Virus record (IMG/VR): IMGVR_UViG_2690316184_000007
DNA from: a virus
Taxonomy: Duplodnaviria; Heunggongvirae; Uroviricota; Caudoviricetes
Reading direction: 5' to 3' (one strand)
Length of the DNA: 16,468 nucleotides
The notes under the pieces are model-generated. The model made no database searches. It was not told the origin of the DNA and saw nothing but the letters and a program-made list of their open reading frames with translations. The stretch's first letter is position 1, and every line of letters begins with the position of its first letter. This document shows, one piece after another, positions 3,068-16,468 of the stretch. The position numbers and the translations under genes are program-made.

Positions 3068-3179
3068 AACTGAAGTTGCCCTGAAAATGAAATTTTTTTG
3101 CACAACCGCAGAACTTTTCCGCAGGGCATCAGTCTTAATTAGTGCCACTGCTTTTCTTTGATGTCCCCATTTTGTGGAG

Positions 3180-3222
3180 CCCATCAACCCCGCCATTTCG
3201 GTTCAAGGTTGATGGGTTTTTT
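3180..3222 (+). terminator. Hairpin plus T-run, possible ybjL terminator or part of the prophage attachment region
   Basis: Inverted repeat CCCATCAACC / GGTTGATGGG (10 bp each) around a 17-nt loop, then TTTTTTG on the + strand. The long loop and the ~110-bp distance from the ybjL stop make assignment uncertain. Confidence 0.4.
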
Positions 3223-3302
3223 GTTGCCTGAAATTTATGCCTTTTAAAATCATGATGTTAGAAGCACTGTTTTTTAACGATGGCGACAAAATGGCGGCAG
3301 CG

Positions 3303-4712: not shown

Positions 4713-5194
4713 GACAGCAGCCCTCCCACCGTTTTACTGATATCGCTTAAGGCAGACGTTGCCGTATCCTGCAAATTATTCAGCTGCGCACTGAGATCAC
4801 CGAACATATCGGACAGGGATTCATCCACCCGTTTGAGCGACAGGGTAAACTCAATCCGGCGCGGCATACCATCGCGGAAAAACTCCGTTTTAGTCTGATT
4901 CAGTCCCTCAATCACATACATGCCGTAAATCGTGCCGCTGCCTTCAATCAGAGGCCATGCTTTCCCCTGTTCTGCCATCTGCTCCAGTGCCAGCAACGAC
5001 AGCCTGCCGCCTGTTATCTCCGGCATAAGAACACCGGAAAGCGTCAGCATGTCGTTGTCCGGTCCCAGAAACTGCGTGGACGGACGACGATTTACCCGGC
5101 TGTTAGCCGCATGTCGCCAGCTGCGCTGATACTGCAGTTCCTGATACGGCACGGTGCGCAGCATAAACACGTACAATCCCAGCACCATCATCAT
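4709..5194 (-). CDS. U: P2 gpU-like tail protein, 161 aa
   Basis: 161-aa ORF between the T remnant and D with ATGA overlaps at both ends; size and position match P2 gpU. Confidence 0.8.
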   Translation of the reverse strand: MMMVLGLYVFMLRTVPYQELQYQRSWRHAANSRVNRRPSTQFLGPDNDMLTLSGVLMPEITGGRLSLLALEQMAEQGKAWPLIEGSGTIYGMYVIEGLNQTKTEFFRDGMPRRIEFTLSLKRVDESLSDMFGDLSAQLNNLQDTATSALSDISKTVGGLLS

Positions 5195-5646
5195 GCGTCG
5201 TATCCCCCCTGATCGCTGTAGTTACTCCTGGCTTTTGCCTTCAGCCTGCGTTCACGTTCATCAAGCTGGCGGGCCACCTCCCGCGCAATATCCTGCGCAC
5301 TTTGTCCTGGCTGCGTCTGAATAATGATCTGCGTCGGTGCCTCAATCCGTTGAGCGGGCGGCACAGTGGCTGCACGACTCACCATTGCTTCACCGCCTTT
5401 CGTGGGAAGTGCCAAAGGATGCAACGGTGGAAGCTCTGCTGGCGCGGCAGCAACACCCATCATTCCGGCAACAACGGCAGCCAGTGCAGCTGTATTTCTC
5501 CGGCTGGTCACATTTGCCGGGCCGTTAACAATTTCCGGCCCGTTTTCACCGACGATGCCAAACTGCCCGCGCGGGATATAGCCGCCGCTGTCATACATCC
5601 CCGCAAAGCCATATCCCCATGCCCGGTTATCTTTCTGCCATCCCAT
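5191..5646 (-). pseudogene. T: 3' remnant of the tail tape-measure gene T (C-terminal ~150 codons only)
   Basis: Reading frame overlaps the U start by ATGA as T does in P2, but an in-frame stop lies at 5656-5658 and the upstream DNA encodes a portal fragment on the opposite strand. Gly/Ala-rich C-terminal sequence is typical of tape-measure ends. Confidence 0.65.
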
Positions 5647-6122
5647 CCGCTTTGCTCAACGAGTCCGCCACGCTGTTCCGCCGCAAGTATTACATCAACG
5701 GCAGCCATGCAGGCTTCATCATGTATATGACCGATGCCGCGCAGAATCAGGAGGATGTGAACAATCTCCGCAATGCGATGAAAAGCGCCAAAGGCCCTGG
5801 CAACTTCCGCAACCTGTTTATGTACTCGCCTAACGGCAAAAAGGACGGGATTCAGATCATCCCGTTGTCAGAAGTCGCGGCGAAGGATGAGTTTCTGAAT
5901 ATCAAAAATGTCAGCCGCGATGACATGATGGCAGCGCATCGTGTGCCGCCGCAAATGATGGGGATTATGCCGAATAATGTTGGGGGGTTTGGGGATGTGG
6001 AGAAGGCAAGTAATGTATTTGTTCGTAACGAACTTATCCCCTTACAAAAACGTATCGAACAATTAAATCAATGGATAGGAAACACAATTATTAATTTTTT
6101 ACCATATTCTCTCCAAAGTTAA
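5619..6122 (+). pseudogene. Q: 3' fragment of the portal gene Q (C-terminal ~150 codons)
   Basis: Translation ...RVPPQMMGIMPNNVGGFGDVEKASNVFVRNELIPLQKRIEQLN... is recognised as the C-terminal region of P2-type portal proteins. The ORF is about half the full portal length and has no plausible upstream continuation. Confidence 0.65.
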
Positions 6123-6162: not shown

Positions 6163-6780
6163 TTACCAGTTAAAAATTGATGAGCTGCGAATTGCAGGAA
6201 CATCCGATGGATTTCGTTTAGCAGCTGGTTCCATCAACTTACGCTTATTAAATGCCTGATCAATATAATACTCAGGATTTTTAATAAAGACAGAGTATTT
6301 TACCAATGCACAATATACGTCAGAGTCATTATAATGGGGAACTGTTTTTTCATAAACATGATTCTTTCTAACCAGATAAGGCAAATAATAATCATATCCC
6401 AAACCTGGCGTTCTTAGACTTATAGAACATCCGCATGATGGATCTGCACATACTGCAGGAGTAAACACACTGTCGTAAATTTCATCTCTGATAACACCAA
6501 TTAGACCATTATAGTTTTCTCCCCAGAGTGATGCTTGAATTTCAGTGTTTACAAATGGACGATTTTTGGTTTCCGTTCCAATAAGAACGACAGTAACCGT
6601 TGAGTCTTTTAAAAAATCCTCACGAATAGTCCTCATTATTGTTTCATCAGTGTTAGTTGTACTAATGTCACCATCACTTACCGACTTATCAATAAACGAT
6701 TCTCCTCCGAATAAATCAATAATCTCATCTTTGAGATCTTGTTCGTTAGCATGATGATAACTAAGAAACGTCTTATGCAT
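6163..6780 (-). CDS. TIR-like domain protein, ThsB-like (DUF1863 / PF08937-type), 205 aa
   Basis: N-terminus MHKTFLSYHH... and the core STVTVVLIGTETKNRPFVNTEIQAS resemble the B. cereus ThsB pattern as I recall it (VFFSFHY ... VTCVLIGSQTFNRRWVRYEI), including a Glu at the expected catalytic position (E80). Start ATG overlaps the upstream gene's stop (TAATG). Strongly AT-rich relative to flanking prophage DNA. Confidence 0.7.
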   Translation of the reverse strand: MHKTFLSYHHANEQDLKDEIIDLFGGESFIDKSVSDGDISTTNTDETIMRTIREDFLKDSTVTVVLIGTETKNRPFVNTEIQASLWGENYNGLIGVIRDEIYDSVFTPAVCADPSCGCSISLRTPGLGYDYYLPYLVRKNHVYEKTVPHYNDSDVYCALVKYSVFIKNPEYYIDQAFNKRKLMEPAAKRNPSDVPAIRSSSIFNW

Positions 6781-7511
6781 TATTCACTCCATTTATCAAC
6801 ATTTATATCAAACTCTTTGACTACCTTATCATTGAAGAAATCGTTTACTTCTTTAAAACCTTCCAATACTTGACTAAAATGATAATAATGCTTTTGTATA
6901 ATACTTATAGGGGTTAAATGATACGGCAATGATATAAATTCGCCGTTAGGGTCTCTATCCTTTGTGGTCACTTTATCATGATCTGAAACATATTTATGCC
7001 ATCTCCGATAATTATTTTGATGTTTTGTTAAAAAAGAGTTTAAGGTTTTCAAAATTTCATTTGAAAGTAAATACAGTTTTTTATCTCTTTTTTTCTTCAC
7101 ATCTAGTAATTTCATTTCATCTCTAATGAATTTATAGCACTCATAATATGAGTTTAAAACTTCTTCAATTGAGTCATAATTCGGATCAAATTTAAATAAT
7201 GTTCGCTTCGTATCCAGATAATTTTTTACGCTCTTTTTAAAAAGAAGATCAGACTTATTTAGTAAAATATTAATACCACCAAAACTAAGTTGCTCCAATC
7301 TCAATGAATATCTTTGATGAAATGCACCGACCAGCAAGATATAAGCAACTAAAAATAGTATTAATACTGATAAAAAAGCACGAATTATGCTTACATTTGA
7401 CATGAAATTAACTATAAACCACCATTTTTCAAACGGTGAAAACGGAATGCTCCCCATGATAATAAGTAGAAGAACAAAGATACAACTCCATAAAACCCAC
7501 AATCTGTACAT
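6780..7511 (-). CDS. Membrane protein with two N-terminal transmembrane helices and a ~150-aa Lys/Tyr/Asn-rich C-terminal domain of unknown function; first gene of the TIR operon
   Basis: ORF-track frame extends to a TTG at 7556; I prefer the ATG at 7509-7511 (MYRLWVLWSCIFVLLLIIMGSI...), preceded by AAAAAGGA. Hydrophobic helices at about residues 4-22 and 50-75 of the ATG-start protein. The C-terminal domain has no Gly-rich Macro motif and no SIR2-like motif I can see. Confidence 0.6.
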   Translation of the reverse strand: MYRLWVLWSCIFVLLLIIMGSIPFSPFEKWWFIVNFMSNVSIIRAFLSVLILFLVAYILLVGAFHQRYSLRLEQLSFGGINILLNKSDLLFKKSVKNYLDTKRTLFKFDPNYDSIEEVLNSYYECYKFIRDEMKLLDVKKKRDKKLYLLSNEILKTLNSFLTKHQNNYRRWHKYVSDHDKVTTKDRDPNGEFISLPYHLTPISIIQKHYYHFSQVLEGFKEVNDFFNDKVVKEFDINVDKWSE

Positions 7512-7663
7512 AAGAAAGATCCTTTTTCTTTTTATAATACTGCAACTACACCTCAAGTCAAAACCCTCTTCTGATATTACCCTCTACTACAGTAACCCAT
7601 CACATGACCTCCGACTTATCAGAAGACTAGCCAAACTTTCTCAATCAAATCAGGTTGCGCGCG

Positions 7664-14105: not shown

Positions 14106-14327
14106 CTAATTAAGGTTTAGATTGCATTCTGAAAGCGCATCAACGGTCATGGCTGCTATGTTGATCATCACTTTTTCACGTTTTTTATCTTTGCGCAGAC
14201 GGTGACGGATAAGGCGTCCGTCAGCCAACATGTCATTGATGGTATCGATGGACAGCCCTGTCAGCTCGCTATAGCGTTCAATAGTCACATGAGGCGTGGT
14301 AAGAGTGATTGAAATGTTAGGTCTCAT
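14106..14327 (-). CDS. apl: Apl/Cox-type small DNA-binding protein (excisionase/transcriptional repressor), 73 aa
   Basis: First gene of the early operon, divergent from cI; helix-turn-helix-like segment [21 protein letters not shown]; basic C-terminal region. Confidence 0.6.
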
Positions 14328-14446: not shown

Positions 14447-15022
14447 GTGACCATGAATTTGGAGAAAGGCGGACGAGGCGCTATAGAGCGCATGGTAGAA
14501 GCTTATGGATTCAAAACTCGACAGGCGTTGTGCGATCATTTAGGAATCTCTAAAAGTACACTCGCCACACGCTACATGCGTGACTCATTCCCAGCAGAAT
14601 GGGTAATCCAGTGCGCCCTTGAAACGGGCACCTCGCTTAATTGGCTCACAACCGGACATGGTTCAAAGCAAACTTCAGGTAATACAAATACTATGGAAGT
14701 TGCTAAATATGTATTATCTGATGGTGCCTTGCGTGAAGACGGTTTTTATATTTTTGATAAGGGATTTCTACCCTCTACGTTTAAAAAACCTTTTGTCATC
14801 ACAGATAACAATTCTGAATTTATTTGTGATAAAGAATTTGATGATATACGTGACGGTAAATGGGTAATAAGTATTGATGGCGAAATAACAATCCGCGACA
14901 TTACTCGTTTACCCGGTGGAAGAATCTTCGTTGAAGGTGGAAACAGAGCCTTCGAGTGCAAGATAGAAGATGTTGAAATAATTGGGAAAATTATAAGTTT
15001 AACAATTAAGTACGTTAGGTAA
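14447..15022 (+). CDS. cI: CI-type immunity repressor (186-like), 191 aa
   Basis: N-terminal DNA-binding region (...FKTRQALCDHLGISKSTLATRYMRD...), length close to 186 CI, divergent from apl/cII and followed by int. Confidence 0.8.
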   Translation: MTMNLEKGGRGAIERMVEAYGFKTRQALCDHLGISKSTLATRYMRDSFPAEWVIQCALETGTSLNWLTTGHGSKQTSGNTNTMEVAKYVLSDGALREDGFYIFDKGFLPSTFKKPFVITDNNSEFICDKEFDDIRDGKWVISIDGEITIRDITRLPGGRIFVEGGNRAFECKIEDVEIIGKIISLTIKYVR

Positions 15023-15037
15023 TACCGGGAGGAAACT

Positions 15038-15229
15038 ATGCTTGGTAAGGTATTTTTTGTGGTTTTATCATGCTCTTTGTTATTAAACCCACTAACTACC
15101 TATGCTAAAAATTATCCTTGTTCTGGGAAAAAGGGAGGTGTCTCTCACTGTACCTCCGATGGAAAGTTCGTTTGCAATGATGGAACTATTAGTAAATCAA
15201 AAAAAATCTGTACTAAAAACTCGCGATAA
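15038..15229 (+). CDS. Small secreted Cys-rich, Lys-rich peptide (63-aa precursor, predicted signal peptide)
   Basis: Strong Shine-Dalgarno (GGGAGGAAACT-ATG); N-terminal [23 protein letters not shown] has signal-peptide character; mature ~40-aa part carries 4 Cys. AT-rich; not part of the canonical P2/186 backbone between the repressor and int. Confidence 0.5.
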
Positions 15230-15415
15230 ATTTTGCTTTTATATCTGCGCCTAATATAACAATGAGCCGCAGGCTAACCGCAAAAGTCACATACTCACAT
15301 AGCAAAAAATAGCCAACTTCATTATGGCTTCAGTGAGATGTATGGTCGCAGGATTTCATACATTGACACTGGTTATACATACAGTAAAAATGCTCTCTAT
15401 TGGAGGGCATTTTTT

Positions 15416-16468
15416 ATGGCAGTACGAAAACTCACCACAGGAAAATGGCTTTGCGAATGTTACCCCGCCGGACGTAGTGGGCGTCGTGTGCGTAAACAAT
15501 TCACCACCAAAGGCGAAGCTCTGGCTTTTGAGCGCCATACGATGGAAGAAACCGAAGCAAAGCCCTAGCTGGGAGAATCAGTGGATCGTCGAACACTGAA
15601 AGACGTGGTTGAGCTATGGTTCAAACTACATGGTAAATCTCTAACCGCTGGGCAGCATGTCTATGATAAATTGCTGTTGATGGTTGACGCTCTGGGCAAT
15701 CCCCTTGCAACCGATCTCACCTCTAAAATGTTTGCCCACTATCGAGATAAACGCCTGACAGGTGAGATCTACTTCAGCGAGAAATGGAAGAAAGGAGCAA
15801 GCCCGGTCACCATTAACCTGGAGCAAAGCTATCTAAGTAGTGTTTTTAGCGAACTATCCCGCCTGGGCGAATGGTCGTATCCAAACCCACTGGAGAACAT
15901 GCGAAAATTCACCATCGCAGAAAAAGAGATGGCATGGCTTACCCATGAGCAGATTGTTGAACTGCTGGCTGATTGCAAACGTCAGGACCCAATTCTGGCA
16001 CTGGTAGTCAAGATATGCTTAAGCACAGGCGCACGCTGGCGAGAAGCAATAAACCTTACCCGATCACAGGTGACTAAATACCGAATTACCTTTGTAAGAA
16101 CGAAGGGGAAGAAAAACAGAAGCATCCCTATCAGTAAAGAGCTTTATGAAGAGATCATGGCGCTTGATGGGTTCAATTTCTTCACAGACTGCTATTTTCA
16201 ATTTTTATCCGTGATGGAAAAAACGTCAATCGTGCTCCCTCGCGGTCAACTGACACACGTTCTGCGCCATACGTTTGCGGCGCATTTCATGATGTCGGGT
16301 GGAAATATCCTTGCTTTGCAAAAAATCCTCGGACATCACGATATAAAAATGACTATGCGTTACGCTCATCTGGCACCGGATCATCTGGAAACGGCGCTCC
16401 GTTTCAATCCTCTGGCAACGCTGCCAAGTGGCGACAAAGTGGCGGCAGCGGTTGGCATTACCCCGTAA
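15416..16468 (+). pseudogene. int: P2-type tyrosine integrase interrupted by an in-frame amber codon
   Basis: ATG at 15416 (after GGAGGG) opens MAVRKLTTGKW...RRVRKQFTTKGEALAFERH, matching the P2 Int N-terminal arm-binding region. TAG at 15566-15568 lies in the same frame as the downstream 295-codon ORF, which carries catalytic motifs (LSTGARWRE, HVLRHTFAAHF, MRYAHL). The stop TAA is the last three bases of the window. Confidence 0.8.

Follow-up and report, generated by a model that had tools for sequence, protein, structure and literature searches.

An amber mutation of probable Dcm origin in the integrase of a defective rybB prophage of 186/P2 type in Escherichia coli

The virus record IMGVR_UViG_2690316184_000007, a stretch of 16,468 nucleotides (nt) that we analysed over its full length and refer to as the window, ends in a P2/186-type integrase gene, int, whose frame of 350 codons runs from an ATG at 15416 to a TAA that forms the final bases of the window (16466-16468) and is interrupted only once, by an in-frame TAG at codon 51. 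This single break raises the question of whether the stop is real, how it arose and what it means for the prophage that carries it. A sequence-only reading of this DNA had described the interruption, and its positions for the ATG, the TAG, a downstream in-frame GTG (15581, codon 56 of int) and the TAA all agree with ours; it had proposed either a recent nonsense pseudogene that fixes the prophage in place, a truncated protein made from the GTG, or expression in amber-suppressor backgrounds only. We consider it probable that the TAG is a genuine, heritable and recent amber mutation (Trp51 to stop), which arose by deamination of a Dcm 5-methylcytosine, and that int belongs to a defective prophage of 186/P2 type whose insertion site is rybB of Escherichia coli. 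The features on which this reading rests are collected in Table 1.

That the interrupted frame is a true gene, as opposed to an open reading frame (ORF) that arose by chance, is clear because it differs by only two bases over 1169 nt from the gene of an intact 350-amino-acid 'phage integrase' of E. coli APEC O78 (WP_000290933.1) and because the part 3' of the stop contains the Pfam domains Int_N (PF24624, 1.9e-32) and Phage_integrase (PF00589, 4.4e-22). Relatives of int carry TGG (Trp) at codon 51, and the check that had been suggested earlier, a look at this codon in close relatives, returned TGG in 65/65 intact alleles examined. The whole window aligns to APEC O78 and to 16 other complete E. 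coli genomes, and a base-by-base comparison with APEC O78 over all 16468 nt gives exactly two differences, both G to A and both in int, at 15503 (Ala30 to Thr) and at 15567, the middle base of codon 51.

The exact 50-amino-acid product of this allele (Thr30 followed by the stop) was found on 12-17 contigs from several independent runs (DRR791081, SRR27114672, SRR13089970/71, SRR13090003 and SRR13343764), and the DNA of the Thr30-plus-stop loci that were compared shows no difference from the window over the stretches that overlap. If the TAG were an error of sequencing or assembly, such as a systematic miscall at a methylated CCWGG, this would explain why the change falls exactly at a Dcm motif, and methylated Dcm motifs are trouble spots for some long-read base-callers. 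However, such an error would have had to produce the identical allele, the 15503 change included, in all of those runs, and stop-51 alleles are also present in NCBI and ENA assemblies from many projects. A methylation-related base-calling error is further disfavoured because the remaining 27 Dcm sites of the window are the same as in APEC O78. A base-calling artefact is thus very unlikely to be the source of the TAG, and we give this explanation almost no weight.

Taking the amber codon as real, its position within int points to a mutational origin. The mutation hit the inner cytosine of a CCWGG site (CCAGG on the minus strand), where a C to T change is read as G to A on the plus strand, and the surrounding CCCTGG context is kept in 65/65 of the intact alleles. 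The three Dcm sites of int offer six methylated cytosines, and only deamination of the one opposite 15567 gives a stop, the other five changes being synonymous; G15567A is itself one of 129 possible stop-creating single-base substitutions in the gene, and one of 30 if only transitions are considered. The general mechanism is documented, CCWGG being an established hotspot for G:C to A:T changes at the methylated base, which Vsr counters mainly in stationary phase (PMC13250602, PMC2715241). In the sequence of events that we propose, the host Dcm, which methylates CCWGG at its inner cytosine, would do so on the minus strand opposite G15567; spontaneous deamination of this 5-methylcytosine to thymine would leave a T:G mismatch, the mismatch would escape very-short-patch repair by Vsr, and replication would then fix the G to A change, turning TGG into TAG. 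The dcm-vsr pair was found in 5359-5368 of 5426 complete E. coli genomes. Synonymous transitions at methylated cytosines of the other two Dcm sites of int exist as rare polymorphisms (gene position 448 in locus L020; one IMG/VR allele each at 405 and 448), which fits the mutability of Dcm sites. The stop-51 alleles of loci L016 and L020 also have a synonymous G156A (at about 10156 of each locus), four bases 3' of the stop mutation, giving CTAGCTAGG.

A hotspot should be hit more than once, and stops at codon 51 are indeed found well beyond the lineage of the window. An exact-sequence look-up placed the 50-amino-acid product with Ala30 on 48 contigs (68 index blocks), and at the ten Ala30 places for which the DNA was compared the stop lies on int haplotypes that are 20-76 of 1053 positions apart. 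The prophages concerned differ in their immunity regions, cargo and deletions, and their chromosomal flanks show up to 75 differences per 6 kb. Each stop haplotype also has an intact TGG sibling: outside codon 51 no difference separates locus L019 from APEC O78, L014 from phage vB_EcoM-813R9, L018 from L066, or L021/L022 from many complete genomes (99.9% identity), while a single difference separates L015 from L078 and L020 from L031, and two separate L016 from L030. Because these intact siblings are only 0-2 bases away, recurrent mutation on at least six unrelated int haplotypes is favoured over one spreading allele, and independent mutation, at least six times, is the economical reading of the recurrence.

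The same recurrence could in principle reflect one ancient stop-51 allele that was spread by recombination, or selection for locking in a useful prophage, with mutability not the main cause. The P2-like prophages at rybB are mosaic, in that a given int haplotype does not keep to one chromosomal flank, grounding by recombinase mutations has been proposed as favoured (PMC6379469), and the TIR-domain gene pair of the remnant in the window could be worth keeping. Spread, however, would need a conversion tract of less than 36 nt to carry the stop between the APEC-type and 813R9-type alleles while sparing the polymorphisms at gene positions 123 and 159, and it would have to leave every stop allele with an intact sibling of its own at 0-2 differences. 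Selection would be served by any of the 129 stop-creating changes, by frameshifts or by deletions, yet one base dominates. We regard both forms of this explanation as quite unlikely. A reading of recombination from a four-gamete pattern, in which all combinations of Ala/Thr30 with Trp/stop51 exist, was dropped, as Thr30 with Trp51 lies on distant int haplotypes.

To judge whether codon 51 stands out from the rest of the gene, the products of ten other nonsense transitions served as controls and were present on 0-19 contigs. As raw counts of truncated products are mostly contig-end truncations, the counts were restricted to true stops: at equal sampling, the three commonest controls (R110*, Q179* and R163*) were true stops at 2-3 of 10 places in 1-2 haplotype groups, the rest being contig ends, while W51* was a true stop at 10/10 places in seven haplotype groups. 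W51* therefore recurs independently more than R110*, Q179* or R163*, in a semi-quantitative sense. In many independent assemblies the contigs end at identical places in int, namely codons 110, 163 and 179 (L033-L039, L042-L049, L052-L059), and protein databases therefore contain recurrent 'truncated integrases' that are assembly artefacts and not nonsense alleles. A Trp208 stop allele of the same integrase (207-amino-acid products P0003 and P0004) occurs on some 160 contigs that bear the names Shigella boydii and S. dysenteriae, and is probably a clonal pseudogene in those lineages.

Although recurrent, the stop is rare. Among complete E. coli genomes codon 51 was TAG in one and TGG in 732, and three genomes had a synonymous change on the opposite strand of this Dcm site; these counts were made with 33-mers, such that every BLAST seed (28 nt) had to span the tested base, and replaced 57-mer identity-band tests of TAG and Ala30Thr, which were haplotype-specific owing to nearby polymorphisms such as A159T. 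The single complete-genome case is labelled 'phage integrase, pseudogene, internal stop' by the NCBI pipeline. In IMG/VR, TAG, TGA and the synonymous Dcm-site change were each seen in 0 contigs, against TGG in at least 120; the stop allele was absent from the phage and viral collections examined, and the exact TAG 31-mer had no match among the GTDB representatives, which comprise one genome per species. Since the stop (one genome) is no commoner than the synonymous change at the same site (three genomes), there is no sign of positive selection, with the reserve that these numbers are small. The frequency of the stop-51 allele thus stays below about 1%, and the allele is rare and short-lived, with a frequency much like that of a neutral change at this hotspot. 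Two complete genomes both labelled E. coli strain E3 from poultry, NZ_CP104536.1 and NZ_CM130010.1, are different genomes: one has a remnant of the window type with intact int, and the other has the TAG in a minimal remnant made up of ogr, a partial cII, cI and int.

The second substitution helps to place the stop in time. Locus L019 has an APEC-type int with the stop alone, without Ala30Thr, and has an identical 9.1-kb chromosomal flank in common with the window lineage. Thr30 with an intact Trp51 is found on distant int haplotypes (L023-L027), and no APEC-type allele with this combination was found among the Thr30/Trp51 proteins, all of which lie on distant haplotypes. The likely order is thus an intact int, then the stop, then Ala30Thr. 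The sequence-only reading had linked the stop with a structural-gene deletion in the prophage; the deletion itself is there, while its tie to the stop is weakened, since 17 complete genomes carry this remnant with int intact, so that the deletion is earlier than the stop and independent of it. In the window lineage, the structural-gene deletion would have come first, with int still intact, the Trp51 stop would have followed, and Ala30Thr would have arisen in a gene that was already dead. The changes at 15503 and 15567 are both C to T on the minus strand, the presumed lagging-strand template.

What, then, would the stop do to the protein? In the intact protein, Int_N, the core-binding domain, spans residues 57-165, residues 169-334 match 1aih, the catalytic domain of HP1 integrase, over their length in the alignment (8.8e-58), with the motifs TGARW.EA, HvLRHTFA and GH..I.MTMRYAH identical between int and 1aih, and residues 49-334 align to the integrase fragment 5c6k, which holds core-binding and catalytic domains (3.1e-47). 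As the 5c6k alignment starts at residue 49 and Int_N at residue 57, the stop lies where the arm-binding domain meets the core-binding domain. The 50-amino-acid peptide matches no arm-binding model of Pfam even at E<=10, and its fold is assigned from the literature, in which the N-terminal domain of P2 and 186 integrases binds the arm sites (PMC3448106). Measured against the IntP2 subgroup of tyrosine recombinases, int has the catalytic domain and, N-terminal of it, the core-binding domain; however, the arm-binding domain, which in relatives belongs to the same polypeptide, is split off by the TAG with codons 1-50. This domain has been called essential for the mobility function of such integrases (PMC8138268). 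The split gene would yield no heterobivalent integrase to bridge arm and core sites, and, from what is known of the family, Int-dependent excision of the remnant would be lost and the remnant locked at rybB. The att cores, both arm-repeat pairs, cI and the gene in the apl position are all unchanged despite the stop in int.

The proposal of a recent nonsense pseudogene that fixes the prophage is upheld by these data, since the allele is one transition from intact alleles, the remaining frame is undamaged and NCBI labels the equivalent case a pseudogene. The other two proposals, and the possibility that the locus is a regulated one, have to be set against it.

A truncated protein from GTG 15581 is plausible. 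An SD-like (Shine-Dalgarno-like) GGGAG stands 5 nt before this in-frame codon, with an anti-SD duplex of -7.3 kcal/mol compared with -9.8 kcal/mol at the native ATG, the 295-amino-acid ORF is called by gene callers at every stop-bearing locus, and the 295 downstream codons are undamaged, with complete Int_N and catalytic domains. It is well known from work on lacI that translation in E. coli can restart after an early nonsense codon. It is a further step to propose that the restart gives a functional 295-amino-acid recombinase, acting alone or with the free 50-amino-acid arm-binding peptide as a split integrase, and this we find unlikely. The SD-like motif is particular to the window haplotype, other haplotypes having GGGTG (-3.7 kcal/mol), and so is incidental and not evolved; recency accounts equally well for the undamaged downstream ORF; and the rarity of the allele (roughly 0.1% of alleles or fewer) and its absence from the phage and viral collections examined are as expected for a defect. 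Moreover, the arm-binding domain of this integrase class must be covalently joined to the core-binding and catalytic domains to bridge the sites, and it is described as essential for mobility (PMC8138268, PMC3448106). The product restarted at this GTG would be an arm-less core-binding and catalytic fragment, from which no excision of the element is expected.

In E. coli a TAG with C as its next base terminates translation comparatively weakly, so that trace read-through is conceivable, and the remaining frame is intact, as it would be if full-length integrase were made by amber suppression or natural read-through and the gene were conditional and not dead. However, a recoding signal would be expected to persist, while here the stop is not conserved among relatives, be it in complete genomes, in IMG/VR or in the 65/65 intact alleles with TGG; it is a rare derived state (one TAG against 732 TGG complete genomes) that arises at a mutational hotspot on many backgrounds. 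The L017 lineage has TGA at codon 51, which an amber suppressor could not read, and ARAGORN found no tRNA gene in the window, so that there is no element-encoded suppressor tRNA. The earlier suggestion of expression only in amber-suppressor backgrounds finds no support here, and suppression or read-through has a very small chance of being the explanation.

Vsr has been reported to stimulate CTAGG-to-CCAGG changes (PMC2715241), and the Dcm site at the border of the two domains might act as a slow, partly reversible mobility switch imposed by the host, with deamination turning int off and Vsr biasing reversion of TAG to TGG, or the 50- and 295-amino-acid products might form a split integrase with altered regulation; for either idea the chance is very small. 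If the switch were true, lysogen populations would hold a small standing fraction of locked prophages.

Several points nevertheless count against a pseudogene made by Dcm-dependent deamination. Methylation of the site at codon 51 in the source strain is presumed, and the dcm gene of that strain lies outside the window. Locus L017, with an APEC-type int haplotype, has a stop-51 allele that is TGA (L017:10151-10153), made by G to A at the outer, unmethylated cytosine of the Dcm site that also yields the TAG; therefore, not every mutation of codon 51 needs Dcm. Ala30Thr lies 64 nt from the stop (chance about 1%), a clustering that the Dcm mechanism does not account for. The contig counts carry uneven sampling and clonality, which makes the excess of W51* semi-quantitative only, and selection for loss of int could add to the recurrence. 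Finally, we infer the loss of excision from the integrases of lambda, P2 and 186. With these points taken into account, a Dcm-derived amber mutation that disables int is still the reading that we prefer.

Table 1. Positions of the features discussed, in window coordinates.
Feature	Position	Strand	Basis or remark
rybB small RNA gene, reconstituted intact; its 3' end is the attachment site	3147..3225	+	Rfam RybB, 105 bits; K-12 annotation
Attachment (att) core ATGGGTTTTTTGTT, left junction	3212..3225	+	Perfect 14-nt repeat; its other copy (L004 18043) follows the int stop at 75 nt and so falls just beyond the window; alignment to the empty K-12 site
Pair of direct arm-type repeats (TGGCGACA, TGGCGGCA) beside ogr, at the opposite end of the prophage	3281..3299	+	Pattern search
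Deletion junction joining a partial tape-measure gene to a partial portal gene	5191..6122		PGAP pseudogene annotations in the otherwise identical APEC O78
73-amino-acid ORF in the apl/cox position (186/P2 excision directionality factor)	14106..14327	-	Between cI and cII; by position only; identical in APEC O78
CI repressor gene, 186-type, upstream of int on the same strand	14447..15022	+	APEC O78 annotation 'phage repressor protein CI'; Pfam Phage_CI_repr and Phage_CI_C
Promoter-like site TTGACA-17-AAAAAT directly upstream of int, 10/12 matches	15363..15391	+	Consensus scan only
int codons 1-50, N-terminal arm-binding domain, now a separate 50-amino-acid ORF (MAVRKL...EAKP)	15416..15565	+	Translation; precedes the core-binding domain (start about residue 49-57)
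Second private substitution, G to A, GCC (Ala30) to ACC (Thr)	15503	+	Outside any Dcm site
Former Dcm site CCTGG, now CCTAG	15564..15568		Minus-strand inner methylated C pairs with 15567; listing of all Dcm sites in int
Amber stop TAG, codon 51	15566..15568	+	From TGG (Trp) by G to A at 15567
Possible restart site: SD-like GGGAG (15571-15575), 5-nt spacer, in-frame GTG 15581, 13 nt past the stop	15571..15583	+	Sequence
Rest of int, 295 codons, undamaged	15581..16468	+	Core-binding and tyrosine-recombinase catalytic domains (Pfam)
Two direct arm-type repeats (TGGCGACA, TGGCGGCA) within the int 3' end	16429..16447	+	Pattern search

The element that carries int is a defective prophage, a 13-kb remnant of 186/P2 type at rybB. 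In the annotation of APEC O78, the chromosomal genes ybjC, grxA, ybjM and ybjL are followed by the remnant, which consists of ogr, D, a tail gene, incomplete tape-measure and portal genes that are fused to each other, the genes of a TIR-domain protein and of its partner, a DinI-like gene, replication endonuclease A, dam, cII, the 73-amino-acid gene in the apl position, cI, a 63-amino-acid gene and int; rcdA follows int just beyond the window. All head genes, the lysis genes and most tail genes are gone. The 73-amino-acid ORF matched nothing significant in Pfam (E<=10), and the number of promoter-like sites near int in the consensus scan is not above the shuffled expectation for the region.

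rybB is listed as an insertion site of P2-like prophages in E. coli W, B and Crooks (PMC3032704), and the empty site of K-12 has the order rcdA-rybB-ybjL. The 14-nt att core, ATGGGTTTTTTGTT, is the tail of the rybB terminator. The arm repeats fit, on the opposite strand, the 186-type consensus tgccGCCActt (PMC3448106); TGGCGRCA has six matches in the window against 1.56 expected, with a pair at each of the two prophage ends. Cognate arm-type and core-type sites thus flank the element, and, because the arm-repeat pairs and the att core repeat are present, the DNA substrates of excision are intact.

Two slots of the remnant hold variable genes. On the minus strand at 6163-7556, between the portal remnant and the DinI-like gene, are a ThsB-like TIR-domain protein (205 amino acids) and an adjacent protein of 243-258 amino acids, and the same cargo slot in related rybB-site prophages holds a retron-type reverse transcriptase, GAPS4b, HEPN, AbiC or HNH. 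Between cI and int, on the plus strand at 15038-15229, is a 63-amino-acid ORF with a hydrophobic N-terminus, recorded as YdcA-like; other prophages of the family have a 558-amino-acid SNIPE/T5orf172 protein, a KAP NTPase or an OLD-like ATPase there, and this slot looks like a second cargo hotspot.

The mutation in int resembles the classical Dcm amber hotspots of E. coli, in which the inner cytosine of CCWGG is mutated, C to T on the methylated strand, an amber codon is made and the event recurs independently. The amber hotspots of lacI and lambda cI at CCAGG, countered by Vsr, are the textbook examples. Those ambers come from CAG (Gln) within CCAGG, whereas the int amber comes from TGG (Trp), on the complementary strand of CCTGG; they were found in laboratory reporters, while the int case belongs to a prophage gene in natural populations and its dependence on Dcm is inferred.

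As to the protein, int has the arm-binding, core-binding and catalytic domains in the order of the heterobivalent IntP2-subgroup integrases (Int of P2, 186 and HP1), with the matches to 1aih and 5c6k, but differs from them in that the stop cuts the arm-binding domain off and makes the gene a pseudogene. Also shared are arm repeats of the 186 type at both prophage ends and the gene order cII, apl position, cI and int; the attachment site of 186, however, is a tRNA gene, and that of the window prophage is the 3' end of the small RNA gene rybB. The same site and phage type are found in the P2-like rybB prophages of E. coli W, B and Crooks (Rybb*W, Rybb*B with retron Ec86, and Rybb*Cr), and in related loci the corresponding internal position is taken by a retron or by other defence cargo; compared with these three, the window copy has shrunk by deletion to a 13-kb remnant, its cargo is of the TIR-domain kind and its int is a nonsense allele. 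Grounded or domesticated prophages, such as the cryptic ones of E. coli K-12, show the same loss of morphogenesis genes and recombinase, with repressor and cargo kept (for the concept, see PMC6379469), while the inactivation in the window is very young, a single base without further decay, and traceable to a recurrent mutational mechanism.

Both the mechanism, a Dcm amber hotspot, and the outcome, a grounded prophage, are therefore of kinds already known; any novelty may lie in documenting that, in a widespread integrase family, one particular base is mutated repeatedly in nature. For the source genome, the rybB remnant should be treated as fixed in place and int annotated as a pseudogene. More broadly, the locus would provide a natural example of a textbook laboratory phenomenon, in which host cytosine methylation repeatedly disables a prophage recombinase at one predictable base, and it illustrates that parallel pseudogenisation can stem from mutational bias and not from selection. 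Codon 51, read as TGG or TAG, may then serve as a simple marker to predict the ability of P2-like prophages at rybB to excise.

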